Below are positions 16,683 through 63,651 of a stretch of DNA of 64,000 nt, piece after piece (position 1 is the first letter of the stretch; each line of letters opens with the position of its first letter). This DNA is from a virus: IMG/VR virus record IMGVR_UViG_3300043777_000102, positions 6,888 through 70,887 of that record. One strand, given 5' to 3'. The notes below the pieces were generated by a model, which ran no database searches, had not been told where the DNA came from, and was given only the letters and a program-made list of their open reading frames with translations. Both the position numbers and the translations under genes were made by a program.

Positions 16683-16707
16683 CCTTGGTCGGCTCGGGTG
16701 ACGTGGC

Positions 16708-17031: not shown

Positions 17032-17302
17032 GGTGGGTGACTGGCTCCGCACGCGCTACCGACCACGCGCCCGGAAGCTGATCGCGCCGTTTGTGCTCGC
17101 GGTGGCGATGATCGCGCTCGCGGTGGCCGTAGGCCGATGCTCTACCTCCTGACCTGCACCAACGCCGCTGGCGACGACAAGTGGCACATGACGGTATTCA
17201 CCGAGCAGGACCGCGACCGCGTGGCGCAGACCTGGCGCGACCAGGGGCGCCACGACATCCGGGTGAACGGCGAACCCTGGCGACCGAACGGTGCGTAGTT
17301 TC

Positions 17303-17327
17303 CGAACCTTCCCGCCTCTCAGGCGTT
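17303..17327 (+). promoter_or_regulatory. EcfG (sigmaT, general stress) type promoter
   Basis: CGAAC-N16-CGTT versus consensus GGAAC-N16/17-CGTT. Confidence 0.5.
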
Positions 17328-17359
17328 GTGAGAGGGTAGGCTACCCAAAGGAGGGCGCC

Positions 17360-17425
17360 ATGTACTACGGTTCGGGCCTCGGCCTGATCCTGCTGATCGT
17401 CATCCTGATCCTGATACTGCGATAG
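17360..17425 (+). CDS. 21-aa hydrophobic peptide (DUF3309-like)
   Basis: AAGGAGG RBS; MYYGSGLGLILLIVILILILR. Confidence 0.65.
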   Translation: MYYGSGLGLILLIVILILILR

Positions 17426-17434
17426 GAGGCGGCT

Positions 17435-17692
17435 TTGTGCTTCTCCCTTCAATGGCTGGAAGCGTTCTTGGTCTGGTTGATTGTGATCTGCGCTGTAGTC
17501 GCGCTGCTGCGGCTGCTGATCGGTTTCGTCATTCCGAAACTCGGCCTCGGCGGCGAGGTGGTGGGCTTTGTCGTGAAGGCGATCACCATCGTCATCTGGG
17601 CGGTCGTCTGCATCGGCCTGGTGTACTTTGTTTTCAGCCTCGTGATGTGCCTGGGGCCGTCGATGCCGCACATGCTGCCGGGCCGCCCCTAA
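17435..17692 (+). CDS. Two-TM small membrane protein
   Basis: AGGAGG RBS; two hydrophobic helices. Confidence 0.7.
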   Translation: MCFSLQWLEAFLVWLIVICAVVALLRLLIGFVIPKLGLGGEVVGFVVKAITIVIWAVVCIGLVYFVFSLVMCLGPSMPHMLPGRP

Positions 17693-18968: not shown

Positions 18969-19325
18969 ATGACCTCTCTCCCCCGCCGCCGCGCGCTGCT
19001 GGCCCTGCTCGGCACCACCGCACTCATCGTCGCAGCCTGCTCGTCCACGCAGTCGCCAAGCACGGCGATCGCGGCCTCTGAGGTGGCGCTGACCGCCGCC
19101 GACCAGTTGGCGATCCAGTACGTCACGCTGCCCCTGTGCGGCCCCACGGCGCCAAAGCTGTGCTCGTCGGCCAGTATCAGCGCGCAGATCAAGACCCAGG
19201 CCCAGAACGCCTACAATGCGATCCAGGCGGCCAAGGCGAACCCCACGTCAGCAGCGGCAGCGGCGGCAGCAGCGGCGGTGTCCGAATTGCAGGCGCTCGT
19301 GCCGCCCGCGACAACCACGAACTGA
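18969..19325 (+). CDS. Lipoprotein (possible spanin-type lysis component)
   Basis: Signal peptide with lipobox VAAC; AGGAG RBS. Confidence 0.7.
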   Translation: MTSLPRRRALLALLGTTALIVAACSSTQSPSTAIAASEVALTAADQLAIQYVTLPLCGPTAPKLCSSASISAQIKTQAQNAYNAIQAAKANPTSAAAAAAAAAVSELQALVPPATTTN

Positions 19326-36899: not shown

Positions 36900-37301
36900 C
36901 TAATAGCTTGAGCAGGAAACCATGTTGCCCATCGGCATGCAGGTGGTCGTACGCGTCTGTGGCACATACGGGGCGGGCGTCATCGCTCGCAGAGTAGCGT
37001 TCGAGTTGTCCTGTTGCATTTGTTGCTGTGCCCGCCAATTAGCCTGCCATTGGGCAGAGGCGGCCGTGGAGTTGGCATCTTGCTCGGCGCGTAGCCGCAA
37101 CATGCAATCCGTGTAGCCCGGCGTGCCAAGACCGGCGCCGTAGCTGTCACAGGTGGCTCGCATCTGTTCTACCTGCTGTTGCTGCGCCCTCTGTCGCTGC
37201 TCGGCCATCGCCGCACAACCGGAGAGGGCGAGCAACGTCCCGATGGCCGCAAGTGATGCGGTTCGGCAACGGCCGGCGGATACTGGTCTTCCTTCGTTCA
37301 T
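36900..37301 (-). CDS. Passenger: lipoprotein
   Basis: Lipobox LSGC; C..YG...GT..Y..C; coupled to the transposase stop. Confidence 0.7.
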   Translation of the reverse strand: MNEGRPVSAGRCRTASLAAIGTLLALSGCAAMAEQRQRAQQQQVEQMRATCDSYGAGLGTPGYTDCMLRLRAEQDANSTAASAQWQANWRAQQQMQQDNSNATLRAMTPAPYVPQTRTTTCMPMGNMVSCSSY

Positions 37302-38275
37302 CGCGCCCGCTGCCAATAGCCGCACCAATCCACCGAAGGACGCGAGGCCATCGCCAGCGCCATGATGTTCTGGACTTGCCGGCCGTTATCCACGCGCCGG
37401 TGATCTTCGCGCCATGCTGACTCCTGGGCATATCGGATCAGGTACGGCCCGGCGATATGATGATGGTGGCCCAGCTCGGCCCGGCGTAGGCGGCTGAAAA
37501 ATTCCTCGGCACCGTTCGTGTACACGCCATTGAGGCTGTACGCTTCTTGGTGGTCGATCCGCTGCATGGCGAAGCGTGTCTGTAGGTCATTCCAGCCGGC
37601 GGCTTCATCGGCCACGATCTCGGTCCCCTTGGCGACGCGATTGGTGATGAAGCCCAGCGCCGCGGACTCGGACTTGAACACGGCTGGCAGCGTCCGGCCT
37701 TCGCGCTCGCGGATCACCACCACGACTTGCCGCTTGCCGTTCTGGTTCTTCGTCAGCCGGCGATCCCGTCGGTTCTCCCGCAGATTGGACGGCTTCACGT
37801 ACCCGCCAAAATATCCGCCGTCGATTTCTGCCGTACGTCCGATCCCGCCGACCATCTGGCCTTTCATCTCCGACGCCATCGCCTCGCGGAGTTTATGGGC
37901 GAGCACAAAGGCGGTTTTGTATTGTACACCGAGATCGCGGGAGAGTGCCAGTGCCGCTTTGCCCTTCACTTCGTTGCAAAAGATGGCGATGGCCGCGAGA
38001 TAGCTCCGAAGCGGCAGCTTGTGCCAGGCGAACAGCGTCCCAGTCGTGATGCTGAAATCCTTGCCGCACTCTTTGCATCGCCAGCGCGGGCCACGACCGG
38101 GCTTGCGGCAGTCGTAGACGGACTCGCATCCACAATGGGCGCAAACGGCCCGGCCTTCGGTTGCCTGCCAGCGGATGCCCATGAAAGCCGTCTCGGCTTC
38201 CTGATCCGTCATGCGGAAGACCGTGCTCAGAGAGAGCGTGCGGGCCTTCGCCGATAACAGAAAATGTTGCGCCAT
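37298..38275 (-). CDS. IS1595-family transposase
   Basis: Zn ribbon CAHC..CKEC..FSITTGT; EIDGGYFGG; ADE; H..AYS...YTN.AEEFFSRLRR. Confidence 0.95.
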   Translation of the reverse strand: MAQHFLLSAKARTLSLSTVFRMTDQEAETAFMGIRWQATEGRAVCAHCGCESVYDCRKPGRGPRWRCKECGKDFSITTGTLFAWHKLPLRSYLAAIAIFCNEVKGKAALALSRDLGVQYKTAFVLAHKLREAMASEMKGQMVGGIGRTAEIDGGYFGGYVKPSNLRENRRDRRLTKNQNGKRQVVVVIREREGRTLPAVFKSESAALGFITNRVAKGTEIVADEAAGWNDLQTRFAMQRIDHQEAYSLNGVYTNGAEEFFSRLRRAELGHHHHIAGPYLIRYAQESAWREDHRRVDNGRQVQNIMALAMASRPSVDWCGYWQRAR

Positions 38276-43141: not shown

Positions 43142-43218
43142 TGTGGGGTGGAGCAGTCCGGTAGCTCGTCAGGCTCATAACCTGGAGGTCAGGGGTTCGA
43201 ATCCCCTCCCCGCTACCA
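43142..43218 (+). tRNA. tRNA-fMet (CAT), initiator type, CCA encoded
   Basis: Cloverleaf; 1:72 mismatch; A11-U24; AGG/CCU anticodon-stem pairs; TTCGAAT T-loop. Confidence 0.93.
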
Positions 43219-47209: not shown

Positions 47210-48700
47210 ATGCCCCTGGTCTACTCCTGCGAGGGCATGCCCACGATCCAGCGGTTCTTCGAATCGGATGCCTACATCCGCGGCCTCATGGGACCGTACG
47301 GGAGCGGGAAAAGCTCGGCTTGTGTGATGGAGGTCGCCCAGCGCGGCATCCGACAGGCTCCGGGACCTGACGGGGTGCGCCGGTCGCGCTTCGCGGTCAT
47401 CCGTAACACGATCAAGCAGCTTGAGGACACGACCGAAAAAACTTTCCTGCAATGGTTCCCGCCGATCCAGTTCGGCGATTGGACCCCAAGCAAGCACAAC
47501 TACAGAATCCGGGCTCTCCGCGGCGAAGGGGACGACCGAGGGGCGGAAATCGAGGTGATGTTCCGCGCCTTGGACCGCCCGGATCAGAAGGGCGACCTGC
47601 TCTCGATGGAGCTGACTGGCGCTTGGATCAATGAGGGCCGTGAGATCGACTGGGAAATTTTCGAGGCCGTGACTGGCCGCACCGGCCGGTATCCGCCGAA
47701 GGGCATCGGGCCCGGGGCGACTTGGTTCGGCCTATTCAGCGACACGAACCCGCCCGACACGGATTCAGATTGGTACCGGTTTTTCGAGGAGGAGGACCAC
47801 TCCGAGAAGGTGGCCGAACTCGCCAAAGTCGTGCCGGGCATGACTGTCGACAGCTTCCGGCAAATCTTCAAACAGCCCAGCGGACGATCGGCACGCGCGG
47901 AAAATCTCAACCACTTGGTCGACGGCTATTATCAGCGCGAGGCCATCGGCAAGAGCGACGAGTGGGTCAAGATCTTCGTCGACGGCCAGTACGGCTTCAC
48001 GGTCGAAGGGCGCCCGGTCTGGCCTGGTTACAGCGATGCGCTTCACTGCCCCGCGGAAAAACGGCTCTGGCCGCGCCCGATCGAGGGTCTGCCAATTCAG
48101 CGGGGCTGGGATTTCGGGGGCACTCCGGCCTGTGCCTTCAGCCAGATCACTCCCCGCGGGCAGTGGATCATCTTCGACGAGATGACGTCGACGCGGTCCG
48201 ATGCCGACGAGTTTTCCGATCATGTGCTGGACCACTGCGCGCGTGAGTATCCGCAATTCGAGTTCGAGGACGTGGGCGACCCCGCTGGTAACTCGCGGTC
48301 GGATGCCGACTCGAAGACCTGCTTCATGATTCTCCGTGGCAAGCACATCCTGATCGAGCCGGGTATCCAGACCCTGGCCATCCGGCTTGCCAGCGTGGCG
48401 AAGCCGCTCCGCACCCTAGTCGACGGCGGCTTCCCGCAGTTTGTCCTTCATCCCCGCTGTAAGGACCTGCGCCGCGGCATGATGGGGGGCTACCATTTTC
48501 GTCGGATGAAGATCAGCGGTGAGCGCTACGCTGAGACCCCAGAAAAGAATAAATTCTCCCATATTTGCGATGCGCTGGGGTATACTGGCACGCGCCTGTT
48601 CGGCGTCGCGCTGCGATCACCCCCGGATAATGGCCAATCTTCTCGCCAATATGGCGACCGACTGGACGACCGCAGCAGATCGGGTGTCACGGGATATTAG
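47210..48700 (+). CDS. terL: Terminase large subunit
   Basis: Walker A GPYGSGKS; Walker B GAWINE; DTNPP; nuclease GWDFG, GDPAG, SHICDALGY. Confidence 0.95.
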   Translation: MPLVYSCEGMPTIQRFFESDAYIRGLMGPYGSGKSSACVMEVAQRGIRQAPGPDGVRRSRFAVIRNTIKQLEDTTEKTFLQWFPPIQFGDWTPSKHNYRIRALRGEGDDRGAEIEVMFRALDRPDQKGDLLSMELTGAWINEGREIDWEIFEAVTGRTGRYPPKGIGPGATWFGLFSDTNPPDTDSDWYRFFEEEDHSEKVAELAKVVPGMTVDSFRQIFKQPSGRSARAENLNHLVDGYYQREAIGKSDEWVKIFVDGQYGFTVEGRPVWPGYSDALHCPAEKRLWPRPIEGLPIQRGWDFGGTPACAFSQITPRGQWIIFDEMTSTRSDADEFSDHVLDHCAREYPQFEFEDVGDPAGNSRSDADSKTCFMILRGKHILIEPGIQTLAIRLASVAKPLRTLVDGGFPQFVLHPRCKDLRRGMMGGYHFRRMKISGERYAETPEKNKFSHICDALGYTGTRLFGVALRSPPDNGQSSRQYGDRLDDRSRSGVTGY

Positions 48701-49247
48701 TCCTATTTCCCGGATGCCAGAACTCGCCGTGAATGCGACGTGCTGCTGCGCAGTAGGCTTCGTGAGCCTCAATCTCGGTCTCGAACCGGCCGAGGTAGAG
48801 CTGCTTGCCGTTCTCGCCGATGAATGACATGAACTGGCCGCGATGCCGATAGGCCCCTTTGAGGGCGCTGGGATATTTCCGATCAGCGTGGCCGAGCATG
48901 TTCCGTGTGTTTTCGGCCTTCGATGCACCGCGAAGGTTCGTGAGGACATTGTTGTCGGTCACGTGATCCCAGTGATCGACGGTTGGCGGGTCCTCACCGG
49001 TCTCCATTCGCCAGATCAGGCGGTGCACCGGCCAGTGCTGCATGTCGAGGTTAGCCCGTAGGTGGCCCGATTTTCCTGCTCGGCTATCGCACACGTCGCC
49101 CGCAAACCGGGTGTTGTATGATTTCCATGCCGCATCGGACGCGAAGTGGTGCCGCGGCCGCCAGCGGCGCTTCAAGATGCCGGTTTCGGGATTGTATTCG
49201 AAGCACTCGCATAGATAGGCCTGGGGCGGTAGGGTGCGGGACGTCAT
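48687..49247 (-). CDS. HNH homing endonuclease with AP2-like domain
   Basis: YNPETG; VHRLIW..VDHWD....NN..TNLR..EN..N; YLGRF.T..EAH.AY. Confidence 0.9.
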   Translation of the reverse strand: MTSRTLPPQAYLCECFEYNPETGILKRRWRPRHHFASDAAWKSYNTRFAGDVCDSRAGKSGHLRANLDMQHWPVHRLIWRMETGEDPPTVDHWDHVTDNNVLTNLRGASKAENTRNMLGHADRKYPSALKGAYRHRGQFMSFIGENGKQLYLGRFETEIEAHEAYCAAARRIHGEFWHPGNRTNIP

Positions 49248-49339
49248 GTATTCCTCCGACAAGGGATCATGGCCAGGGTGCCGCGGCGGTGACACGCCGC
49301 GGTGTCCCGATCCTACCACAATCGGCCGGGGCGCCAAGC

Positions 49340-49759
49340 ATGGGCCTATCGCAGACTCGTCTGAATAATTCGTTCCGAGGCGCTCCGCTTCGCCTGGCGA
49401 CGCGCGAGGAGGAGATGTCGGCCTACGATTCGCTGCCGCGCGACCTGCGCCGGGCGCTGGACGAGAACGCAACCAACCTCTCGGCGGTCAACTGCGTCGT
49501 GCAGGCCTGGAAGCTGCTGGACATGGGCGCATCGCCGGCCCGTGCCGCTGCCGCAGTCGCCAACAAGATCAGGCAGATCGAGCCGAACGAGATCGCCATT
49601 TTCGGCGGAGAATATAAGTCAAAATATAACTCCGTTTTGGGCCATATCGCCGCCCGCGCGACCGTGATGCGCTATGGACCCGACGGCCCGAGCCGGCATC
49701 CTCCGCGGCGCGCCCCCCAGATCAGGGGCATGCGGCTGGACGTGCAGGTGGCAGCGTGA
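49340..49759 (+). CDS. Hypothetical protein (DUF6525-like)
   Basis: MSAYDSLPRDLRRAL motif. Confidence 0.6.
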   Translation: MGLSQTRLNNSFRGAPLRLATREEEMSAYDSLPRDLRRALDENATNLSAVNCVVQAWKLLDMGASPARAAAAVANKIRQIEPNEIAIFGGEYKSKYNSVLGHIAARATVMRYGPDGPSRHPPRRAPQIRGMRLDVQVAA

Positions 49760-53142: not shown

Positions 53143-53579
53143 CCCTCGAAGAAGCCGTCGCCGCCTTCGAATCGCAGATGACCGTGCATGAGGCGGTCGG
53201 CTACCCGGTGAACGACCACGGCGCTAGGGACATGAGCCGGGCGCCGACGGGTGAGCGGTACATCACCTTCGGTTGCATCGGCAGGAAGCCAGAGGGCGAG
53301 CGGATCGAGGCCTGGTTCTCGAAGGAGGATGCGGCGGTCGCCTTCTGGCTCGATTACATCCAAGGCTACGCGGCGAACTGCGGCAAACAGCTCTACTGGC
53401 GCGAGCGCCCCGAGATCGTGACCGGGACCTTCGTGGCCGTGAATCAGGCCGAGGCGATGCAGGACCAGCGGCTACGGGACAGCCTCTCGGTGGAGCTTCA
53501 CACCGTCTGGTGCCGCCTGCTGGTGTCGGCCAAGGGACCGGACGGGAAGATCATCGACGTGATCGAGGACCAGGGCTGA
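53139..53579 (+). CDS. Hypothetical protein
   Basis: ATGA coupling; LYWRERPEI. Confidence 0.65.
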   Translation: MTLEEAVAAFESQMTVHEAVGYPVNDHGARDMSRAPTGERYITFGCIGRKPEGERIEAWFSKEDAAVAFWLDYIQGYAANCGKQLYWRERPEIVTGTFVAVNQAEAMQDQRLRDSLSVELHTVWCRLLVSAKGPDGKIIDVIEDQG

Positions 53580-54043
53580 TGCAGGAGCGCTTTCTCACCA
53601 CCGACCGCGGTACGTTCAAGCTCGCGGAATACGACGGCCGCAACCGCGCCGGCCTCAAGCCCCTCTGCGACAACGTGCTGGTGCTGATCGACGCGATCGC
53701 TGGGGAAATCCCCGTCGCTGGCACCGAGGTCAAGCTGCACATGACCGATCAGGCCCAGGAAACCGGCACGCTCGGCTCGACCACCGGCGTCATCATCGCC
53801 GTCGGGCCGCAGGCGTTCGCCTACGACATGGACCGGCTGGTGAAGTGGGAAGGCGAGCGGCCCAAGCCGGGCGATCGCATCTGGTTCCAGCGCTACGCCG
53901 GCCAGGAGCACACCGGGCTCGACGGCAAGCTGTACCGGATCATGCAGGACCGCACGATCGCTGGCATGGAAGACAAAGAGGCGATGGCACTCATCGCGGC
54001 CGAGGGGGAGGCCGACCAGGTGGTGCGACGGGCGAGGGCTTAA
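53579..54043 (+). CDS. groES: Co-chaperonin GroES (Cpn10) family protein
   Basis: LKPLCDNVLV; GVIIAVGP; KPGDRI.F.RYAG...DGKLYRIM.D..I. Confidence 0.85.
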   Translation: MQERFLTTDRGTFKLAEYDGRNRAGLKPLCDNVLVLIDAIAGEIPVAGTEVKLHMTDQAQETGTLGSTTGVIIAVGPQAFAYDMDRLVKWEGERPKPGDRIWFQRYAGQEHTGLDGKLYRIMQDRTIAGMEDKEAMALIAAEGEADQVVRRARA

Positions 54044-54046
54044 CGA

Positions 54047-55039
54047 GTGTCCGAGACGCAGCAATCCGGTGCCAATGGCGCCGCGCCTCACGCCGCAATC
54101 GAAGGTCTGACCGCAGAGGAGGTTGAGGCTTCTGCGCGCGCGCTCGGGTGGAAGCCCCAGGCCGAGTTCCGCGGGCCGCCCGACAAGTGGCGCCCAGCCG
54201 ACCAGTTCATGGCATCGGCGGCCAACCCGGCGATCCTGGCCAACAATTTCCGCGTGCTCAGCGATCGCTACCGGACGCTGGAAAGCACGCATCGCACCAC
54301 GACGCAGCAGCTCACGCAGAAGCTTGATGAGGCCGTGAGCATGGTCGGAACGCTGACGGAGCGGACACGCACCTCTGAGGAACGCGCCTACGCCCGCGCG
54401 CGCAAGGAACTACTGGCCGAGCGCGACAAGGCGATCACCGAGGGCGACGCGCCGCGCGTGCGCGAACTCGACACCGAGGTGCAGGAGCTCGACGCCGGGA
54501 AGCCGCCGCCGAAGCCGACCGCGACGACCGCGACGACCACGACGACTGCCGCGCCCGCGCAGCCGACCACGCAGCAACTCGACCCCGAGATCGCCGCTTG
54601 GTCCACCCGGAATCCGTGGTTCTTCAGTGATCCCGATTTGGCCGCGGCCGCGAACGGTGTCAGTTCGGCGCTCCGGGCGAACCCGGCGACGGCCAGCCTC
54701 TCGGTCGCCGACCATCTCGTGCAGGTCGAGAACACGATCAAGCGGACCTTCCCGGACAAGTTCGCCGCCCCGAAATCGGCGGCGCGCGCAGTTGCCGCCG
54801 GTGATGAGGACGACGACGCCGAGCCGCCAGCGGTCGAGACCCCGAACAGTGGGGGCGCTGGTCGGCCGCAGGGCCAGCGCAACCGCCGCGACTTCGCCAG
54901 CATGCCGCGCGAGTCGAAGCAGCAGTTCGCCCGGTACAAGGAGATGATCGGCCGCAAGGTCGAGGAAGGCGGCAGGGTTAAGCCTTTGACAGAAGCCGAA
55001 TGGGCAGCCAACTATTGGTCACAGTTCGAGGACGCCTGA
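54047..55039 (+). CDS. Capsid scaffolding protein
   Basis: ARALGWKP..EF; coiled coil; W..RNPWF; position upstream of capsid. Confidence 0.75.
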   Translation: MSETQQSGANGAAPHAAIEGLTAEEVEASARALGWKPQAEFRGPPDKWRPADQFMASAANPAILANNFRVLSDRYRTLESTHRTTTQQLTQKLDEAVSMVGTLTERTRTSEERAYARARKELLAERDKAITEGDAPRVRELDTEVQELDAGKPPPKPTATTATTTTTAAPAQPTTQQLDPEIAAWSTRNPWFFSDPDLAAAANGVSSALRANPATASLSVADHLVQVENTIKRTFPDKFAAPKSAARAVAAGDEDDDAEPPAVETPNSGGAGRPQGQRNRRDFASMPRESKQQFARYKEMIGRKVEEGGRVKPLTEAEWAANYWSQFEDA

Positions 55040-55040
55040 G

Positions 55041-55658
55041 ATGTCGATCCGTGACGCACTGAGCCAGGAAGGCGCCGACCAGCAGCGCGCCGCGCAGGCC
55101 GCGGCCGCCGGCATCTCGCTGACCGGTCTCAGCAACAAGCACCGCGAGCGGACCGCCGACGAACCGATCTTCGGTGAGCGGGTCGACCCCGCAGCGATCC
55201 GCGGCATGGAACCAGGCACCGAAGTGCCCCCCGGCCTCGCCAAACCGCAGCTTCGCCAGGCCATGACAGCCCGCGAGCGCGTCCCGTTCGGCAACGCGCA
55301 CCAGCGGCTCTACTGGGCGCCACGCCCTGGCTTCCGGCGCTACTGGTTCAACGACACGGCGGGGCGAATCGGCCTGGCCAAGCGTGCCGGGTACGAGCAT
55401 GTCGTCGACCCCGACACCGGATCGGCGGCCTGCCGCATCGTCGGAACCGACCGCGGCGGCCGCGACATGAAGGGCTACTTGATGGAAATCCCCATCGAGT
55501 GGTATTGGCAGGATATGCAGGTCGCTCAGGACCAGCGGGACCACGATCTGAACCAGATCAAATCTGGTCAGTATGGCCCCGGGGCAGACGACCACCGCTA
55601 TGCTGGTAGCTCCAAGGGGGGCATCAGCATCAAGTTCGGGACCGGCCGCTCAGCATAG
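55041..55658 (+). CDS. Conserved head-region protein
   Basis: PGFRRYWFND..GRI..A..AGYE.V..YLMEIP.EWY. Confidence 0.75.
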   Translation: MSIRDALSQEGADQQRAAQAAAAGISLTGLSNKHRERTADEPIFGERVDPAAIRGMEPGTEVPPGLAKPQLRQAMTARERVPFGNAHQRLYWAPRPGFRRYWFNDTAGRIGLAKRAGYEHVVDPDTGSAACRIVGTDRGGRDMKGYLMEIPIEWYWQDMQVAQDQRDHDLNQIKSGQYGPGADDHRYAGSSKGGISIKFGTGRSA

Positions 55659-55788
55659 CGTCCCTCCCCAGACCGCCGGGCGCCCCAGCACGCCAGCGCC
55701 GGCGAGGTCCAGCAGACCAAATCACAGCCTGAACTGCCGAGCCCATCCGGGCCGGCTTCTGTGACCCACATGCTGGGGGTGCGCCGCG

Positions 55789-56403
55789 ATGGCCAACACG
55801 AATGCACCGTTCGGGATCCGCCCGTATGCGTACCGCAGCGGAGCCCCCTACAATGGCGCGGTCCGCACCTATTACGTCCCCGTCGGCAACGCCACCGCCC
55901 TCTATTTCGGTGACCCGGTTGTCCTCATCACCAACAGCGGTGACGGCAACGGCGTCCAGACCGTGGAGATCGCCACGGCCGGCAGCACCTCGGGCACCTC
56001 CCTGACGTACGCCATCCTCGGCAGTTTCCAGGGCATCTCGAACAATGCCGGGACGACGACCATCCCGGTGCTGCAGAGCGCCACGCCATACCTGCCGGCC
56101 AGCACCGCGGCCTACATCTACGTGGCCGACGATCCGACCCTGCTCTACATCGGCCAGGAAGACTCAGTCGGTGGCGCGCTCGCCTCGGGGGCCGCCGGCC
56201 GCAACGTCTCGCTCGTCGCCGGCGCCGGTTCGACCGTCACCAGTCAGTCCGGCTGGCAGCTGCAGTCGAGCTCGTTGAACACGACTGCCCTCCAGTTCCG
56301 GCTAATCCAGCTGCTCCAGGAGAGCGACAACGCGCAGGGCACGAACGCGCGCTGGCTCGGCTTCATCAACAACCACCCGTGGACCCAGACCACCGGCATC
56401 TGA
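55789..56403 (+). CDS. Capsid decoration/minor capsid protein
   Basis: MANTNAPFG.RP; LYFGDPV; V.DDP; directly upstream of MCP. Confidence 0.7.
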   Translation: MANTNAPFGIRPYAYRSGAPYNGAVRTYYVPVGNATALYFGDPVVLITNSGDGNGVQTVEIATAGSTSGTSLTYAILGSFQGISNNAGTTTIPVLQSATPYLPASTAAYIYVADDPTLLYIGQEDSVGGALASGAAGRNVSLVAGAGSTVTSQSGWQLQSSSLNTTALQFRLIQLLQESDNAQGTNARWLGFINNHPWTQTTGI

Positions 56404-56430
56404 TCCGGCTATCGCGAAGGAGATCAAGCT

Positions 56431-57339
56431 ATGGCCGTCATCACTACCGGCACGCATCCAAAGGCACTCTGGCCGGGGATCAAAGCGTGGTTTGGGCGCA
56501 GCTACGACGAGCACATGCCCGAGTATCCCGACCTGTTTGAGATGGACACTTCGGACAAGGCGTACGAGGAGGAAGTCGAGATCACCGGCTTCGGCCTGGC
56601 GCCGGTCAAGCCGCAGGGCGCCCAGATCTTCTACGACATCGAGGTCCAGGGTCCGGTCAGCCGCTTCACCCACGTCGCCTACGCCCTCGGTTACATCGTC
56701 ACTTTCGAGGAACTTCGCGACGATCTGTACGAAGTCGTCTCCAAGCGCCGCGCGCAGCAGCTCGCCTTCAGCATGCGCCAGACCAAGGAGAACATCCTCG
56801 CCTCGACCTACAACAACGGCTTCTCCGGCTCATACACCGGCGCCGACGGCGTCAGCCTGTTCTCGACTGCACACCCCACCCTCTCGGGCAACCAGTCGAA
56901 CCTGCTGACCACCGCAGCCGACCTCTCCGAAGCCTCGGTCGAAGACCTCTGCATCCAGATCATGCAGACCACCAACAACCGCGGCCTGAAAATCTCCGCC
57001 CTGCCGCAAAGTCTCCACCTCCCGACCCAGCTCTGGTTCGAGGGAAACCGCATCCTCCACTCAATCCTCCAGTCCGACACCGCCAACAACAACATCAACG
57101 TCCTGCGAGCCACCGGAGCCTTCCCCAAGGGCATCAAGGTGAACCACTACTTCACCTCGGCAACGGCTTGGTTTATCAGAACCAATATCCCTCGCGCAAT
57201 CCAATACTTCGAGCGCGACAAGCTAAGCTTTGATCAAGATAATGACTTCGATTCTAAGAACAGCAAGGCTGCGTGTTACGAGCGATACTCAGCCTTCTGG
57301 GCCGACTGGCGCGGAGCTTTTGCCACGCCGGGCGTCTGA
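56431..57339 (+). CDS. Major capsid protein
   Basis: 302 aa; ALWPG; SDKAYEE; YALG..VT.E...DDLY; DGVSLFSTAHP; ERYS..W.DWRG; AAGGAG RBS. Confidence 0.9.
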   Translation: MAVITTGTHPKALWPGIKAWFGRSYDEHMPEYPDLFEMDTSDKAYEEEVEITGFGLAPVKPQGAQIFYDIEVQGPVSRFTHVAYALGYIVTFEELRDDLYEVVSKRRAQQLAFSMRQTKENILASTYNNGFSGSYTGADGVSLFSTAHPTLSGNQSNLLTTAADLSEASVEDLCIQIMQTTNNRGLKISALPQSLHLPTQLWFEGNRILHSILQSDTANNNINVLRATGAFPKGIKVNHYFTSATAWFIRTNIPRAIQYFERDKLSFDQDNDFDSKNSKAACYERYSAFWADWRGAFATPGV

Positions 57340-57368
57340 CCTTCCAAATACTTCGGCTTTACTCGCGA

Positions 57369-57411
57369 AGGGCGCTTGCAATTTAACAGTTGCGGCGCCC
57401 TCTCCGTTTGT
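57369..57411 (+). terminator. Hairpin after the capsid gene (possible terminator or stabiliser)
   Basis: AGGGCGC..GCGCCCT stem followed by a pyrimidine-rich tract. Confidence 0.4.
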
Positions 57412-57450
57412 GCAATATTCCCATCGTCCCCAGCAGAGGATGAACGGACG

Positions 57451-58317
57451 ATGTGCTCAAACTGTGAAAACCCTTCGGTCTTGGCTCGTGGCCTATGCGC
57501 GGGCTGCTATCACATTCAGCGCCGAACTGGCTCCCTCCAACGCACCAATATCCGCCGGACCGGCTCTTGTTCCGAGCTGGGATGCGGCAAAGCCATATTT
57601 GCTCGGGGTTTTTGCCAGAAGCACTACGATGCCAACCAGCACCCGCTGAAAACCCCATGGACGCTCCTTCGGTCGCGGTGGCCTGGCGAGTTTCCCGCGT
57701 CGTGGGATCGATTCGAGGCGTTTCTGGCCGATGTTGGTGATCGGCCTACGGCGAAGCACCAACTCAGACGCATCGATTCTTCAAAGCCTTACTCGGCGGC
57801 GAACGTGCAATGGCTGGAACCGATCGGCGTCGGGCGCGATTCGATGTCGCCTGAGTCGCGGGCAGCCTACGAGCGCGCATGGCGATTCAAGCGTCGGTAC
57901 GGCATCACGATCGAAGATTACGACCGGATGCTCGCCGAGCAGGACGGCAAATGCGCCCTTTGCCACCAGCCGCCGGCACGGATCTTCCGGAAGACGGGAA
58001 AGGTGCAGGACCTCGCCGTTGACCACGATCACGCTACCGGCGACGTGCGTGCACTGCTCTGCACCGACTGCAACACGATGCTCGGTCTCGCGGAGGATTC
58101 GCCAGACCGCCTCCGCGCCGCTGCGGCCTACCTGGAGCGCCACACCAAGTCGTCCGACGGCGTCGCTCTGACCTCGATGGCGCACCCGATCGGCCCTGGT
58201 GTCGGCCGCGGCCACCGGATCAAGCCATCGTCGCTGGTGACCGAAACGGTGATGGTGGACACCGAGACCGGCAAGATGCGCCTGGTCTGCGATCCGATCC
58301 AACCGCAAGTTGCTTGA
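57451..58317 (+). CDS. Endonuclease VII-family (HNH) homing-type endonuclease
   Basis: ARGLC..CY Zn fingers; YGIT.EDY..ML..Q.G.CA.C; LAVDHDH.TG.VR.LLC..CN..LG. Confidence 0.9.
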   Translation: MCSNCENPSVLARGLCAGCYHIQRRTGSLQRTNIRRTGSCSELGCGKAIFARGFCQKHYDANQHPLKTPWTLLRSRWPGEFPASWDRFEAFLADVGDRPTAKHQLRRIDSSKPYSAANVQWLEPIGVGRDSMSPESRAAYERAWRFKRRYGITIEDYDRMLAEQDGKCALCHQPPARIFRKTGKVQDLAVDHDHATGDVRALLCTDCNTMLGLAEDSPDRLRAAAAYLERHTKSSDGVALTSMAHPIGPGVGRGHRIKPSSLVTETVMVDTETGKMRLVCDPIQPQVA

Positions 58318-58320
58318 TCG

Positions 58321-58470
58321 GTGTCCAATTTTCTGCGCACCATCGCGAATTGGCTTCTCGCGCTGTCAATTCCCGACCCTGACCTTCAGTGCGAGGCCGT
58401 TGCCTGGGCGGCTCTGTTCCTGGGCGCCTCCGACTGGCTGGCAGCACTCAACCAATGGAGACAAACATGA
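58321..58470 (+). CDS. 49-aa hydrophobic peptide coupled to the pilin gene
   Basis: GTG..TGA; stop overlaps the pilin ATG (ATGA). Confidence 0.4.
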   Translation: MSNFLRTIANWLLALSIPDPDLQCEAVAWAALFLGASDWLAALNQWRQT

Positions 58471-58649
58471 TCCGACTGTTCAAAGACCGCCGCGGCGTTT
58501 CGTCCCTCGAGTACGCCGTGCTCGCCGTGTGTGTCGTTGGCGTCGTGGCTGCGGCCGTGACGCTGGTGCTCGGGCCGGCGATCACCGGCGCGTTCAATGA
58601 CGTGGCGAGCTCGATCAGCGCCGCGATGACGACTGCCAAGGGCACCTGA
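58467..58649 (+). CDS. flp: Flp/Fap (Tad type IV) pilin
   Basis: FKDRRG/VSSLEY cleavage and Flp motif, hydrophobic helix, G..I...F..V...I; GGAG RBS; 60 aa. Confidence 0.85.
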   Translation: MIRLFKDRRGVSSLEYAVLAVCVVGVVAAAVTLVLGPAITGAFNDVASSISAAMTTAKGT

Positions 58650-58765
58650 CGCCCGCCAGGGTTGCGTTCCCGCTGTAATTCCCGCACAAAAACGCTACCG
58701 CACGCGCCGCGTGTGAGGCCCTGCGCGTTGGTGTTGGGGCAACCCCAGGTTTGGGAGACCGGCTG

Positions 58766-58885
58766 ATGGCCGAGCGATCGAAGGCGAAAGAGCGCAAGGA
58801 AGACAAGAAGGAAGACCGCAAGAAGGCGGCCAAACGCCGGATGAAGAAGAAGGACGAGAAGAAAGAGGAACACAAGCGGCGCTGA
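58766..58885 (+). CDS. 39-aa Lys/Glu/Arg-rich peptide
   Basis: GGAG RBS; MAERSKAKERKEDKKEDRKK... Confidence 0.55.
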   Translation: MAERSKAKERKEDKKEDRKKAAKRRMKKKDEKKEEHKRR

Positions 58886-58944
58886 TTTCTGCGGCGGGGT
58901 GCTGTAAGGTGCCCCGCTGACCTTCCCCAGCAGCGGAGGATGAC

Positions 58945-59550
58945 ATGGCTGACAACCGAGACGACGAGGGCTTCGGCACTACCGCTCGGGGCGACGGCGC
59001 TCAGCATCGCCGCGACGCGCTACCCTATCTCGGCGCCGCCGCGATCGGTGGTAATCCGGCGGATTGCCTTGGGCAGCCGCCCCGGCCCTCACCGCTTCAA
59101 TCCCAGATCCCCTTCAAGGCACCGGCGGTTGATCAGAATGAGATCGCGCGTGATCTGATGCGGCGCACCCAGGCTGCCGTGCTGCGGATCACCGGCATCC
59201 CGGCCACCTATCTCAGCCAGGACGCTCTGATCGCTGAACTCCAAGCTGCCAATGCACGCCTCCGCACCGAGGTCGAGGCGCTCCGGGTCGAGCGGGACGA
59301 GGCGCGAAGCCGCCTGGTGTCGGCCGCCGAGACGATCCGAAAGCTCGCCACCGGTGAACCTGCCATGTGGTCGGACGGCAAGAAGGTGGAGGTGCGCGGC
59401 GTGTATCCGCCGATCCGAGCGGACCGGGATGAGGCTTGGCATGACGCACGGATGACCGGCACTGGCTGGCTCCGGGTGACGCAACCTGAGCCCGAGGCGC
59501 CGTCCACCGCCGCCCACTCCAAGCCCTTCCCAGCGAAGGCCATGCGATGA
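58945..59550 (+). CDS. Coiled-coil hypothetical protein
   Basis: GGAGG RBS. Confidence 0.6.
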   Translation: MADNRDDEGFGTTARGDGAQHRRDALPYLGAAAIGGNPADCLGQPPRPSPLQSQIPFKAPAVDQNEIARDLMRRTQAAVLRITGIPATYLSQDALIAELQAANARLRTEVEALRVERDEARSRLVSAAETIRKLATGEPAMWSDGKKVEVRGVYPPIRADRDEAWHDARMTGTGWLRVTQPEPEAPSTAAHSKPFPAKAMR

Positions 59551-59828
59551 GCGCTGAGCCAGATGCCGAGTACGGCACGCCGCAGGAATGCATGGATGAG
59601 CAATGGCTCGACCTGCCGGCGACGTACGTCGATTGCTGGCAGGGCGGTCTGCTGAATGAGGGATCCATTCTGCGGCTGACCTTCGGGCACGGCGATCCGA
59701 AGGGGTACGCGACCTTCACGCAGGCGCTTGCCATGCCGGCCGGCATGGCGCGGCAAATGGTCCGCCGGCTTGTCAAGGCGCTGGAGATGGATCAGCACGA
59801 CCTGTTCGGACCTGAGAGACCCAAATGA
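59547..59828 (+). CDS. Hypothetical protein
   Basis: ATGA coupling; PATYVD..LRLTFG. Confidence 0.6.
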   Translation: MSAEPDAEYGTPQECMDEQWLDLPATYVDCWQGGLLNEGSILRLTFGHGDPKGYATFTQALAMPAGMARQMVRRLVKALEMDQHDLFGPERPK

Positions 59829-60271
59829 GCGACACGTTCCTATCCTTCTACGTGGTCCGCCTGCACCTGAAGGTGGGCGGCTACCTCGACTTCCGGTTTG
59901 ACGACCTTGGACACGCCACCGAGGCTTTGAAGGGCGTCCTGGCCGGCAAGAAGTCTGGCAAGCCGATGCGGGTGTATGACGGCGCTGGCACCGAGACGCA
60001 TTTCGACGACGCGGATGTGCAGGGCATCGGCCCGGTGACGCTGCTGGACATCCCGGCGTCGGCCGCCGCGGCCACTCGGTCCATCGCGATCGCCGGCCTG
60101 GCAGAGCGAATCGAGAACGAGCGGTTGGCGCGACTCGGGATTGTGTTGCTGCCTCCCGAGCAGCAGGCCCCGCGCGCGCCGGCGAACGGCACCGGCGGCG
60201 GTCCTGGCATCCCGGCCCCTGGCAGCTTCCTGCCGGCGTCGCCTGGCGGTCAGCCGCCTTTTGCTGGGTAG
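59825..60271 (+). CDS. Hypothetical protein
   Basis: ATGA coupling. Confidence 0.65.
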   Translation: MSDTFLSFYVVRLHLKVGGYLDFRFDDLGHATEALKGVLAGKKSGKPMRVYDGAGTETHFDDADVQGIGPVTLLDIPASAAAATRSIAIAGLAERIENERLARLGIVLLPPEQQAPRAPANGTGGGPGIPAPGSFLPASPGGQPPFAG

Positions 60272-60274
60272 GCT

Positions 60275-60844
60275 GTGTCCGACCGGCTTGCCAAGGCCGA
60301 TTGGACAGTGCGCGTCGTCGACATCGGCGTGGCCCGACGGCTCGTGGAGCGGGAGCACTATGCGCGCGGCGCTCCGAACACAGCGACGTTCCTTCATGGC
60401 CTGTTCCGTGCCGCCGCCTTCTGGGATGAGGAATGCGTCGGCGTCGCATGGTGGATACCGCCGACGCGGAGTGCGGCCGAGGCCACCTTTCCCGCGAACT
60501 GGCTTGGCGTACTTAGCCTGTCGCGGCTCGCGATCACGCCCGACGCCCCGCGGAACGCCGCCAGCTTCCTGATTTCGCGATCGCGACGGCTGATCGACCG
60601 CATGCGGTGGCCGTGCCTCGTGACCTACGCCGACGAAATGCAAGGCCACACCGGGGCGATCTACCGGGCTGACAACTGGACCTATCTGGGCCGGACAAAG
60701 CCCGAAGCAGCCTTCGCGGTGCGGGGCCGGCTCACGGCTCGGAAAGCGGGCGGTCACACGCGGACGCGGACCGAAATGGCGCAGCTCGGCGCCGAGTCGC
60801 TCGGCAGCTTTGCGAAGCACAAGTTCGTTCACATCGCCGCCTGA
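60275..60844 (+). CDS. Mom-like (GNAT-fold) DNA adenine modification enzyme
   Basis: EREHY; CVGVA; LSRLAI....PRNAASFLISRS; LVTYAD..QGHTGAIYRADNWTYLG. Confidence 0.8.
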   Translation: MSDRLAKADWTVRVVDIGVARRLVEREHYARGAPNTATFLHGLFRAAAFWDEECVGVAWWIPPTRSAAEATFPANWLGVLSLSRLAITPDAPRNAASFLISRSRRLIDRMRWPCLVTYADEMQGHTGAIYRADNWTYLGRTKPEAAFAVRGRLTARKAGGHTRTRTEMAQLGAESLGSFAKHKFVHIAA

Positions 60845-60854
60845 CGCTCGGCGG

Positions 60855-60883
60855 TTGCGCCCCGCGCGCCGCCCGCATATTCT
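60855..60883 (+). promoter_or_regulatory. Sigma70-type promoter
   Basis: TTGCGC-17 nt-TATTCT. Confidence 0.5.
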
Positions 60884-60934
60884 CCCGCCCGAGCGCGCCA
60901 GCAGTCGCGGCTTCCACCAGCGATGGAGCCCCGC

Positions 60935-61864
60935 ATGGCCGCCGGTCAAGTCATCTATTCGCCCGGTCACATCATCCTGCCGGTCGGGCCGCCTGGTTCC
61001 GGTGCACCGCTTCCCGACGCCGCGCCGAGCATCCGGCACATGGGCATTGCCGTGCAGGACCCGCGGGTGCCGTACACTCCGGGCGCTCAGACCGGCAACG
61101 TGGCATTGATCGGGCACTACTTGGGCGGCATGGGGCGGTCCGGAGGCGAAGCGCCGAGCACCATCAGCACGTCCAACATCGCCGCGAACCAGCACACGGT
61201 CACTTTGACGCCGCTGAACCTGGTCACCACGTCGGGTTCCGGCATCACTGTCACGAGTACGCCATTCCTCTGCTTCGGCAGCAACAACACCATTCCTACC
61301 GGCACGCTGGTCATCGACGGGCTGCCGACCTACGGCAAGCTCGGCAGCGGCTTCATCACCGGCATCTACGACCCGGCGGCGTGCATCGGACGCGCGGTGT
61401 CGGTGACGGCGGCGGCCGGCGCGACGGCGACGACCATGCTGATCAAGGGCGCGGACATCTACGGCTACCCCATGTCGCAGCTTGTGACGATCTCGGCTGG
61501 CTCGACGGTGAACACGCTCAAGACGTTCAAGTTCATCTACTCGGTCACCCCGACGGGCACGGACAGTTCGCACAATTACAGCATCGGAACCGCCGACATC
61601 TTCGGCTTCCCGGTGATCTGCAACCACTTCTCGGACTGCTTGATCTACTGGAGCAATCTGCTTCAGGTGTTCTCCACCTATACCGTACCGGATGCGACCA
61701 CGCCGGCGACCACGGCGACCGGCGATGTGCGTGGCACCTGGACGAACGGCGGCTCGGCATCGAACGGCACGATCCGGCTGGACATGCTGCAGATGTTCAC
61801 GCTGGGGATGTTCACCAATGCGGCCGGCCCGGCAGTCGGAATTTACGGGGTAGCGCAGGTATAG
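60935..61864 (+). CDS. Putative virion structural protein
   Basis: S/T/G-rich beta protein; G.DIYG.PM; TATTGDVRGT. Confidence 0.7.
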   Translation: MAAGQVIYSPGHIILPVGPPGSGAPLPDAAPSIRHMGIAVQDPRVPYTPGAQTGNVALIGHYLGGMGRSGGEAPSTISTSNIAANQHTVTLTPLNLVTTSGSGITVTSTPFLCFGSNNTIPTGTLVIDGLPTYGKLGSGFITGIYDPAACIGRAVSVTAAAGATATTMLIKGADIYGYPMSQLVTISAGSTVNTLKTFKFIYSVTPTGTDSSHNYSIGTADIFGFPVICNHFSDCLIYWSNLLQVFSTYTVPDATTPATTATGDVRGTWTNGGSASNGTIRLDMLQMFTLGMFTNAAGPAVGIYGVAQV

Positions 61865-61903
61865 CGTCCGCCTTCACCTTCACCCGAGAGAGGATGACCA
61901 TCC

Positions 61904-62545
61904 ATGGCCCAAACCCAAGGCGTCGTCATCGCCCCCGGTTCGGTGGTGTCGCAGCAGCAGGCCGGCCAGAACCCGGTTGAGTCGCAGGGCGGCTACGGCG
62001 AGCAGATCGTCTCTGAGCTCCACGGCAAGTGGTACACGGCGACGCGCGGTGGCCTCGTGTTCACTGCCGCGGCGACCGCTGCGATCACGCTGCCGATCAC
62101 CAGCGCGGCCCTGGTCAGCAAGTTCTGCCTGATCAACCCACTCGGCTCGGGGAAGGTCATGGAGCTGATCGACGCGGATTTCGCCTCCGTGAGCGCGACC
62201 GAGGTGGTGAATGCCATCCAGCTCGTCTACCAGACGACGCCGGGCGGCGTGACCGGCCTGGCCTCGACCACGGCCGGCACCATCCTGAGCAGCATGCTGG
62301 GCAGCTCGGCACCCGCCTCAACCTCGGTGGCCACGTACTATGTCGCCGCGACCCACACTGGCACGCCGGTCGTCTACGGCAGCCTGTGGGACGTGAGTGC
62401 GACCGCCGCGGGCATTTCGAGCACCCACTATGAGTTCGACGGCAAGATCCTGGTCTACCCGGGCTGCATCATCGACCTGGCGACGAGCACTGCGGGGCTG
62501 ACGAACTGGGTCGGGCAGCTCCGCTGGGCCGAGTTCGCGCCGTAA
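61904..62545 (+). CDS. Putative virion structural protein
   Basis: VSELHGKWY; L.NP.GSGK; T/A-rich. Confidence 0.7.
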   Translation: MAQTQGVVIAPGSVVSQQQAGQNPVESQGGYGEQIVSELHGKWYTATRGGLVFTAAATAAITLPITSAALVSKFCLINPLGSGKVMELIDADFASVSATEVVNAIQLVYQTTPGGVTGLASTTAGTILSSMLGSSAPASTSVATYYVAATHTGTPVVYGSLWDVSATAAGISSTHYEFDGKILVYPGCIIDLATSTAGLTNWVGQLRWAEFAP

Positions 62546-62558
62546 ACGGAGCCGGCCG

Positions 62559-62996
62559 ATGAGTGACGTCGTCAACTACCAGATTCTGGAGCAGGGTCCG
62601 CGCAACGCGATCGTGCAGCTGACGGACGTGTCGGATGGGACCGGGTTGGCCAACTACGTCTTCGTCGACGGCACGAGCGCCGGGCCGTTCGGGGTCAGGG
62701 TGCAGGGCCAGACCTTCTATCCCGGCATCCACCTGAAGCTGGTCGAGATCAAATGGCAGTGCCAGGGGATGGGCTTCGTCCTGTATTGGGGGGCGAACGC
62801 GAACGTGCCCTTCTTCACTGGAACCGGCTTCGGCCATCAGGATTTCCGCAAGTCGGGCGGCATCTACTACCCGCAGCCGAACCCGACCGGCTCGACCGGG
62901 CAGGTGCTTCTGACGACCACGGACACTGACCCCGCGCAGGCGGTGCCAACGTTCAGTGTGTGGGCCCGATTCGTTAAGGGCGTGCCGCAGGGGTGA
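62559..62996 (+). CDS. Putative virion structural protein
   Basis: QILEQGPRNA.V.LT..SDGTG; DF...GGI; TGQVLLTT. Confidence 0.7.
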   Translation: MSDVVNYQILEQGPRNAIVQLTDVSDGTGLANYVFVDGTSAGPFGVRVQGQTFYPGIHLKLVEIKWQCQGMGFVLYWGANANVPFFTGTGFGHQDFRKSGGIYYPQPNPTGSTGQVLLTTTDTDPAQAVPTFSVWARFVKGVPQG

Positions 62997-63651
62997 CCGC
63001 GCCGGGGCGGCCGCGATAGCGGCCCTTGCGGGTCGGCTTCGACAAAGCATCCTCGGCCGTCCAGCCCATTTGGTTCAGACGCGATTTCAGTGTGTTGGGA
63101 TTGATGCCCACCTCCCTCGCCCAAGCTGGACCGATCAGTTCCTTGCCGCGGAAGCCGATGCGGTGATTGTTTCGCTTGTTCGCGCCCTGTTCGTATGGCG
63201 ATTCCCACCGGCAGTTTGAGGGACTATAGGGACCGTCGTTGTCGATCCGACCCAGCGAGTGTTGCGGCGAAGGCTTGGGCCCCATGTCCCTCAGGAAGGC
63301 CTCAAAGCTCGCCCACGTCGGGTCACAGGTGATGCCCCGGCCGCCATAAAGCGCCCAGTCGTTCCTGTTTGAGCAAATGCAGCGCGACCGCATATTCCCC
63401 CACGCGACGTGCTCTGCGGTGCCCACGAGGCCGTGTGTCGTGTGCGCCGCGCGCAGCTTCGCGCTCATCGCACATTGGCAGGTCGGGCGCCGTCGCTCGC
63501 GGAGGGAGTGGTCCTTGATCGACACGATGGCCGAGCAGACGCACAGGCAGCGCCACTTCGGCACGAGCACGCTGTCAGTGTCACGCTCAATCGTCGTCAG
63601 CGATCCGAACGTGACGCCGGGTACAATTTCGGGCAATTTACGTTTAGCCAT
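62974..63651 (-). CDS. HNH-type homing endonuclease
   Basis: FG.LT..WRC.C.C; W..MRSRC..YGGRGI.....W..FE.FL.DMG.KP...SL.RIDNDG.Y.P.NCRW....Q..N. Confidence 0.9.
   Translation of the reverse strand: MAKRKLPEIVPGVTFGSLTTIERDTDSVLVPKWRCLCVCSAIVSIKDHSLRERRRPTCQCAMSAKLRAAHTTHGLVGTAEHVAWGNMRSRCICSNRNDWALYGGRGITCDPTWASFEAFLRDMGPKPSPQHSLGRIDNDGPYSPSNCRWESPYEQGANKRNNHRIGFRGKELIGPAWAREVGINPNTLKSRLNQMGWTAEDALSKPTRKGRYRGRPGAVTPAARP

Follow-up and report, generated by a model that had tools for sequence, protein, structure and literature searches.

Why would a phage carry the gene for a pilin? The question is raised by a short open reading frame, hereafter flp, in the structural region of a soil phage, IMG/VR record IMGVR_UViG_3300043777_000102. 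The record has 70,887 bases, is rated 100% complete by CheckV, and is classed as linear; we analyzed its bases 6888 to 70887, a stretch of 64,000 nucleotides that we call the window and whose numbering is used below unless a search of the whole record is stated. The carrier of flp is a virus, as terminase, portal, capsid, and tail genes occur together in this one record. Comparison of about 100 ORFs with Pfam and PHROGs identified the small and large terminase subunits, the portal, the capsid protein, a tail set made up of tail-collar, fn3, and beta-helix proteins with F5/8-type-C domains, and a DNA-ejection protein. The same comparison found RecT, DnaB, exonucleases, a resolvase, a Mom-like protein, an IS1595-family transposase, and two HNH endonucleases besides an endonuclease VII. 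The three homing-endonuclease-type genes (HNH, endonuclease VII, and HNH, in this order) are spread over the packaging and structural region. Among the remaining contents, the Mom-like DNA-modification gene lies in the late region (60275–60844, + strand; Pfam Mom, E 9.9e-26), two methyltransferase-like genes belong to the initial 6.9 kb of the record (L002), the portal and capsid genes flank a gene (53273–54043, + strand) whose 256-aa product ends in a GroES/Cpn10-like domain, and the phage carries a tRNA-Met gene (43142–43218, + strand). Neither tyrosine integrases nor serine recombinases gave a match at E ≤ 1 anywhere in the 70,887 bases of the record, and no repressor was recognized among the approximately 100 ORFs with Pfam and PHROGs. 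The phage, which shows no integrase, appears to be non-temperate. The beta-helix, fn3, and F5/8-type-C domains of its tail suggest a sugar receptor, and the phage itself may not use pili. A megablast search with positions 54000–62600 returned no match among the GenBank phages.

The product of flp reads MIRLFKDRRG/VSSLEYAVLAVCVVGVVAAAVTLVLGPAITGAFNDVASSISAAMTTAKGT, with the onset MIRLFKDRRG/VSSLEYAVLAV, where the slash marks the predicted cut after Gly10 (58494–58496) at the end of a leader formed by codons 1–10 (58467–58496). Together with Glu15 and Tyr16 (58509–58514), this glycine makes up an intact processing motif, G/xxxxEY; a Gly at the end of the leader followed by xxxxEY is the motif that defines Flp prepilins. 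We read the start as 58467 because of the position of the GGAG, although this start is not proven, and on the same grounds we set aside two alternatives, at 58455 (the public gene call, P0001) and at a GTG at 58389. In a related contig (L087), an AAGGAG occupies the position that matches the GGAG of the window. A 141-aa antisense ORF at 58448–58873 was also rejected, as it is the shadow frame of flp and of a lysine-rich ORF further downstream, and the family match is on the + strand. The initial annotation, which was made from the letters alone, had proposed a 60-aa ORF with a ribosome-binding site, and the reading given here agrees with it. It had also placed this ORF just downstream of the capsid gene, which has to be corrected: flp is situated about 1.1 kb behind the capsid gene and the 313-aa endonuclease gene intervenes (Table 1). 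The 49-codon ORF that precedes flp begins 3 bases past the endonuclease stop (58315–58317), and the start of flp overlaps the stop of the 49-codon ORF as ATGA. Because of this short gap and this overlap, the three ORFs form a chain that could be open to coupled translation. Their GC3 values are 0.72 for the endonuclease gene, 0.66 for the 49-codon ORF, and 0.85 for flp. With respect to transcription signals, terminator-like sites of the kind listed behind flp were found twice, against 2.9 expected in shuffled sequence.

Table 1. Features of the window that are discussed in the text.
Feature	Position	Strand	Remarks
Small transmembrane ORFs, four, after the tail-fibre gene	16251-17689	+	candidate lysis/spanin region
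Lipobox protein ORF	18969-19322	+	candidate lysis/spanin region
IS1595-family transposase gene	37298-38275	-	inside the phage genome
Homing-endonuclease-type gene, HNH	48690-49472	-	packaging/structural region
Major capsid protein gene	56431-57339	+	Pfam Phage_capsid_4, E 6.4e-6; PHROG major head protein, E 1.4e-10
Weak sigma-70-like promoter match, GCGACA-17-GATAAT	57215-57243	+	9 of 12 matches; ahead of the endonuclease gene; consensus match only
Variable island (endonuclease, small ORF, flp)	57340-58692	+	edges from L005 and from contigs of runs X2 and X3
Endonuclease VII / HNH-type homing endonuclease gene, 313 aa	57376-58317	+	Pfam Endonuclease_7, E 5.2e-24; PHROG endonuclease VII, E 9.8e-36
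49-codon ORF	58321-58470	+	GTG 58321, TGA 58468-58470; gene status uncertain
GGAG ribosome-binding site	58457-58460	+	6 bases before the flp ATG; read from sequence
flp, 60-aa Flp/Fap-family prepilin	58467-58649	+	ATG 58467, TGA 58647-58649
G+C-rich hairpin followed by a T-rich run, terminator-like	58708-58727	+	just inside the conserved right flank; consensus match only
Homing-endonuclease-type gene, HNH	62974-63651	-	packaging/structural region

The assignment of the product to the Flp/Fap family can be supported from several sides. The Pfam profile Flp_Fap (PF04964) matched residues 5–49 over profile positions 2–45 of 46, so that the HMM search proposed in the initial annotation gave a near full-length match at E 7.4e-6, but with a score of 26.1 bits, which is below the curated gathering score of 32.2. 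A score under the threshold is, as far as these sequences tell, typical of this Flp subgroup. The closest comparison is a Tad locus from an Acetobacteraceae MAG (L003; the only genome-contig relative, 1 of 150 pattern matches), in which two flp genes are followed by Peptidase_A24, CpaB-like, and secretin-like genes. The Flp of this locus that is 55–57% identical to the phage Flp had no Pfam match at E ≤ 0.01, and the neighboring Flp scored 32.7 bits. Since a true Flp inside a Tad locus also misses the cut-off, we consider the low score of the phage protein normal. A phmmer search with the phage Flp retrieved 34 proteins at E ≤ 1e-3 from 1.84 billion representatives. When the window Flp was aligned with 26 relatives, G10, E15, and Y16 were invariant, and 26 of these 27 sequences matched Flp_Fap at E ≤ 0.01. 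The profile built from the 27 sequences matched two Tad pilins of solved structure, 8u2b and 8u1k (Caulobacter PilA), with E 3e-8, from mature residue 2 onward. The single sequence found no Tad pilin when run with phmmer against the PDB, where only non-significant hemoglobin rows were returned; Foldseek gave no match in the PDB to the one-helix model, and PHROGs and NCBIfam gave no family for either Flp or the 49-codon ORF. AlphaFold predicted one long helix (residues 13–59, mean pLDDT 87), and a single transmembrane segment spans residues 9–44, so the protein is modeled as all-helical, without a globular head. Its precursor length of 60 aa falls within the range of Flp/Fap proteins (approximately 50–90 aa), and the mature part would have 50 aa. 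The prepilin site FKDRRG/VSSLEY and the hydrophobic helix described initially are thus borne out by the invariant residues and the transmembrane segment.

Not only does the product look like a prepilin, but its gene also stands alone. Peptidase_A24 (PF01478), T2SSE (PF00437), TadE (PF07811), and Secretin (PF00263) gave no matches each at E ≤ 1 in the whole record, in agreement with the earlier statement that no other tad genes are present, and the peptidase, ATPase, secretin, and pseudopilin genes that mark a Tad locus are not found near the phage flp. Because the phage encodes no Tad genes, its Flp would depend on the machinery of the host, as had been supposed from the start. Taken together, we hold it to be almost certain that flp is a real, phage-borne orphan prepilin gene of the Flp type (type IVc, Tad).

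The 49-codon ORF in front of flp is a less clear case. It had been described as a hydrophobic ORF coupled to the pilin gene; the ATGA overlap is there, but the product is not clearly hydrophobic, having no Kyte-Doolittle segment of at least 1.6 and no transmembrane segment. A homologue search for a separately called counterpart gave no candidate, and a predicted complex of the 49-aa product with Flp scored 0.01, in a run made without controls. More can be learned from the relatives of the cassette. By a word-index search and a cluster look-up, we obtained ten distinct proteins at 72–100% identity on some 15 contigs, all of them metagenomic, and all ten Flp variants, including the more distant P0004 (on a contig of 62.9 kb) and P0005, keep DRRG/VSSLEYAVLAV. 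One of these contigs (L087, 12.8 kb) contains both the 49-codon ORF and flp, followed by the same downstream genes as in the window; its mature pilin is identical in protein sequence, whereas substitutions and a 10-base indel set the leaders apart. In this contig, the 49-codon ORF is fused in frame to Flp in a protein of 112 aa (L087/P0040), in which the internal AAGGAG-ATG is retained. A second in-frame fusion (P0003, 98 aa) joins an N-terminal extension of about 50 aa to Flp; this extension and the 49-aa ORF agree in 51% of positions over 35 aa, and the pilin part is 92% identical. A tolerance of such fusions would be expected if the part that precedes Gly10 is cut off, and the drifting leader, the tolerated fusions, and the frozen mature part fit an N-terminus that is removed. 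From the motif kept in ten variants and the conserved mature part next to a drifting leader, we infer that flp is maintained by selection. Immediately to the right of the island lies a 44-aa lysine/glutamate-rich ORF (58751–58885, + strand), which is conserved in L087 and in the nearest relative of the window (L005, see below); a contig from an RNA library (X19, 58713–58879) covers it.

Is this cassette a one-off capture, or do other phages carry genes of this kind? The initial annotation had asked for a count of flp genes in phage databases, and the outcome differed between collections. In IMG/VR, Flp genes occur on at least 22 contigs besides this one, and none of the 21 that were checked has Tad genes nearby, while a tblastn search of 50,697 GenBank phage records with the window Flp (E ≤ 10) and the Flp of another IMG/VR contig, L124 (E ≤ 1e-3), found none; the latter is a weak negative, considering that the queries are short and rich in alanine and valine and that the low-complexity filter was on. 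Scanning IMG/VR with the pattern AIEY[GA]LIA gave at least 120 matching stretches, of which 80 loci were fetched, and 19 of these 80 had an Flp HMM match. For 18 Flp loci (L148 was left out because it is on the same contig as L084), we took up to eight neighboring ORFs of at least 110 aa per locus, and there were no Tad genes among the resulting 104 ORFs. In 10 of the 18 loci, genes for terminase, portal, integrase, DNA polymerase, or primase are no more than 4 kb away; IMG/VR holds predicted prophages, and some of these loci may be calls at the host edge. A scan with a single protein gave 37 pattern matches in IMG/VR, none of which was confirmed, and a profile-guided scan added three more Flp contigs of 45–54 kb with Pfam scores of 56–61 bits. 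In these three contigs (L084, L085, and L086) the Flp genes are located amid primase, helicase, DNA polymerase, and thymidylate synthase genes. Their mature Flps (L084:5989-6150, L085:5989-6141, and L086:5947-6135) are near-identical (..AVTAIEYALIAALIAVVII..) despite G+C contents of 0.46, 0.55, and 0.64, and they have Ala at position −1 and not the usual Gly. Such Flps could be slowly cleaved or uncleavable prepilins, acting as decoys of the peptidase. Four contigs (L111, L124, L130, and L180) share one Flp family (MKKL.SK..RDESGATAIEYGLIAAL.SV..), whose gene begins some 4 kb into each locus; three of these genes (in L111, L124, and L180) adjoin terminase genes, the classic moron position, and there are no Tad genes within 4 kb. 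Unrelated phages, by the look of these loci, took up Flp genes independently. Given the at least 22 further contigs and the absence of neighboring Tad genes in all 21 that were checked, the recurrence suggests a general phenomenon and not a single capture.

To see how flp came to its place in the window phage, the relatives of its capsid region are informative. Of 600 pattern-matching IMG/VR stretches, 594 encode capsid relatives, and the best 80 of these 594 matches were examined. The closest relative among them (L005) matches the window at 94.6% nucleotide identity across the capsid gene as far as 57340, and the match resumes at 58693 with 97.7% identity; the 1.9 kb between these two points carry different genes. 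They are a different endonuclease-VII gene, a radical-SAM-like gene of 283 aa, and a zinc-ribbon ORF of 88 aa. Within L005:6414-7447, the radical-SAM-like gene (a weak Pfam match, 23.8 bits) and the Cys-rich zinc-ribbon ORF stand where the window has the small ORF and flp. A 10.6-kb contig from a soil run (X2) joins 57155 to 58693 through 2079 other letters, and in a contig from an independent soil run (X3) the match begins at 58693, the same right edge. None of the contigs of X2, X3, X4 (DNA), and X19 (RNA library) lies over flp, which bears on neither its expression nor its absence. With the Flp HMM, flp was absent from all 80 of the best capsid-related loci (there was one marginal hit, E 0.033), 69 of which continue for 1.4 kb or more beyond the capsid gene, and an endonuclease-VII-like gene follows the capsid gene in 14 of the 80. 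Since relatives fill the island between 57340 and 58692 with other genes, Flp is evidently the cargo of a swap-prone slot and travels with the homing endonuclease. Likewise, as the gene is missing from the nearest relative and from the 80 best loci, it is dispensable.

Cargo of this kind could be a neutral passenger: host DNA containing flp would have been picked up along with the homing endonuclease and be of no use to the phage. The swap-prone island, in which L005 holds other cargo (the radical-SAM-like and zinc-ribbon genes), is what one would expect in that case, as are an endonuclease that is itself sporadic among the best relatives and an flp that the 80 best capsid-related loci lack. 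The condition of the gene speaks against it, however. The reading frame of flp is uninterrupted and preceded by a ribosome site, its GC3 is 0.85, the leader has drifted but the mature part has not, the processing motif is kept throughout the ten variants in spite of identities that go down to 72%, and Flp genes have been acquired independently by unrelated phages. We consider it improbable that flp is a mere passenger.

Selection could also have retained the gene for a purpose that has nothing to do with pili. The product might be a membrane protein such as a member of a holin/antiholin pair or a membrane-level block of injection, whose likeness to Flp would reflect ancestry only. It is indeed a small bitopic protein whose one transmembrane helix is strong, its gene is accompanied by another small ORF, and no endolysin was recognized anywhere in the record (Pfam and PHROGs, approximately 100 ORFs), so that the lysis genes are incompletely mapped. 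Nevertheless, the four small transmembrane ORFs behind the tail-fibre gene and the lipobox protein ORF (Table 1) are a better lysis candidate, and probably the likelier lysis/spanin region of the phage. The neighbors of flp are an endonuclease gene and the lysine-rich ORF, which do not make a holin/lysis cassette, and the nearest relative does without flp, whose dispensability in relatives is a further point against such a function. Moreover, the peptidase motif and E5/Y6 of the mature protein are strictly kept, and a holin would need none of them. All this makes a function outside the pilus very unlikely, and we return to Flp as a pilin.

A pilin without its own assembly genes raises the matter of the host. 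The IS1595-family element inside the phage genome matches 109 of the 401 sampled Acetobacteraceae genomes; at E ≤ 1e-50 it matches 65 of these 401 (counted from the table), versus 2 of 401 genomes sampled class-wide, both at 68% identity. The closest copies, two in a single Acetobacteraceae genome (G759), have 86 and 84% nucleotide identity, and this element is in itself a useful host marker. The window Flp matches 57 of the 401 Acetobacteraceae genomes at E ≤ 1e-5, the best at 57% identity and the following ones at 50–51%. Class-wide, the same threshold gave 10 of 401 genomes (our own count, which includes G001 itself and the unpublished G241), and the best identity apart from G001 was 41%. 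In G759, flp, Peptidase_A24, and T2SSE ATPase genes lie together on one contig. As both the insertion sequence and the Flp similarity favor the family and G759 has Tad genes, the host is likely a member of the Acetobacteraceae with Tad pili, and an Acetobacteraceae-like host is the best explanation for the origin of the phage Flp. Tad pili serve in adhesion and surface sensing, and they are phage receptors in many bacteria, as in the case of the Caulobacter phages.

In such a host, the 60-aa product would enter the inner membrane and the prepilin peptidase of the host (CpaA/TadV) would cut it after Gly10. The 50-aa helical mature pilin would then join the host Tad assembly machine, where it would replace, dilute, or jam the host pilin, to which it is at most 57% identical, and the pilus shaft would be altered or the dynamics of the pilus stopped. 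The 49-codon ORF would be made with Flp, either by coupling or fused to it as a long leader, and its product may be a cytoplasmic helper or a mere leader sequence. We give an even chance to this mechanism as a whole, that is, cleavage by the host, entry into the host Tad pilus, and alteration or jamming. The initial annotation had proposed that Flp is incorporated into host pili or poisons them, with superinfection exclusion, receptor switching, or altered surface-sensing signalling as the outcome; P-FimU (see below) lends such effects plausibility, though they are conjectural. The most likely pay-off of the mechanism would be to close the infected cell to phages that depend on pili, be they competitors or progeny of the phage itself. 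This exclusion of other phages is less certain still, because the gene lies in the late region, is tied to a homing endonuclease, and is dispensable in relatives, and because the phage shows no integrase. Exclusion genes are usually early or prophage-expressed; the site among late and structural genes, the chain with the endonuclease, and the missing integrase therefore put both the timing and the benefit of exclusion in doubt.

The pilin could, on the other hand, simply work. As a functional major pilin, it would raise or change host adhesion and the formation of microcolonies, and flp would be a conversion factor that keeps infected cells near new hosts and not an anti-phage device. The protein shows no sign of a defect: G-1, E5, Y6, the hydrophobic helix, and a mature part of normal length are all in place. 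Annotation surveys also fit a role of this sort, since the relevant entries list Flp homologues of Vibrio harveyi prophages as adhesion factors (PMC12482185) and a "Flp family type IVb pilin" as cargo in Sinorhizobium (PMC12429752). Long-term conversion is nevertheless unlikely here, as neither an integrase nor a repressor was found, and we regard a conversion factor as unlikely overall. A more far-reaching version of our preferred reading, interference with the host Tad pilus, would be that orphan Flp pilins are a widespread and unstudied phage cargo that hijacks host Tad pili in virulent and temperate phages alike. In the window phage, the cargo would be a two-part unit: a peptide of about 49 aa, separate or in the form of a long cleavable leader, would target the peptidase or the Tad motor from within the cytoplasm, while the pilin would enter the filament, and the unit would move between phages with the homing endonuclease. 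We put this forward tentatively, as a possibility more doubtful than probable.

How does the phage Flp compare with systems already described? It resembles the chromosomal Tad pilins (Caulobacter PilA, 8u1k; 8u2b; the Acetobacteraceae locus L003) in its size, its G/xxxxEY motif, and its single long helix, the nearest being the Flp inside the L003 Tad locus (identity as given above). Unlike them, it has no adjacent cpaA/tadV or other Tad gene, it is situated behind a homing endonuclease, and it has a coupled or fused upstream ORF. In the portions of the literature on Flp pilins and phages that were available to us, there are two mentions, both at the level of annotation. The first concerns Flp homologues in the Vibrio harveyi prophages phi345 and phiGANI1709, which were assigned by BLAST to VFDB (PMC12482185), and the second an entry in the COG cargo table of phiLM21-like prophages of Sinorhizobium meliloti (PMC12429752). 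These Flps are phage cargo too, but as far as those entries go they belong to temperate phages and come with no mechanism, whereas the window phage appears non-temperate and its island and relatives have been mapped.

Other phage proteins are directed at type IV pili. According to the passages concerned, Aqs1 and Tip act on PilB and Zip acts on PilZ (PMC13060843; 10.1101/2024.03.05.583538). The presumed goal is the same, pili that are unusable for other phages, but these inhibitors are non-pilin binders of an ATPase or a chaperone, whereas Flp is itself a pilin. The best analogy for the putative function of Flp is pilin replacement by a prophage FimU. The main text of that study describes how P-FimU, encoded by F10-like phages of Pseudomonas aeruginosa, becomes part of type IVa pili and thereby keeps out phages that bind the tip, and it reports PilA-like proteins in Xylella prophages and in virulent phages, one group of which is truncated to the N-terminal 60 residues (Sztanko et al., 2026, Cell Rep, PMC12952977); neither "Flp" nor "Tad" occurs in this main text. 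In the work available to us, the type IVa pilus is also the only one for which phage-made pilins have been shown to enter host pili (PMC12952977). If the same were true of phage Flps, competition among phages would extend to the class of pili that is smallest and most widespread, and a 60-aa protein would be a simple tool to alter Tad pili. As described there, P-FimU and the PilA-like proteins are, like the window Flp, phage copies of a host pilus subunit that come without the assembly machine. P-FimU is a minor tip pilin and, with PilA, of type IVa, whereas the window Flp, known here from its sequence, is a major pilin of type IVc (Tad/Flp); presence in the pilus and the blocking of phages have been shown for P-FimU and are attributed to Flp by analogy. 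P-FimU is prophage-expressed, whereas neither integrase nor repressor was found in the window phage, and its flp has more in common with the PilA-like genes that the same report describes in virulent phages. Phage-encoded pilin replacement as such is known, and its extension to the Tad/Flp class of pili, to which the analogy points, is the new part.
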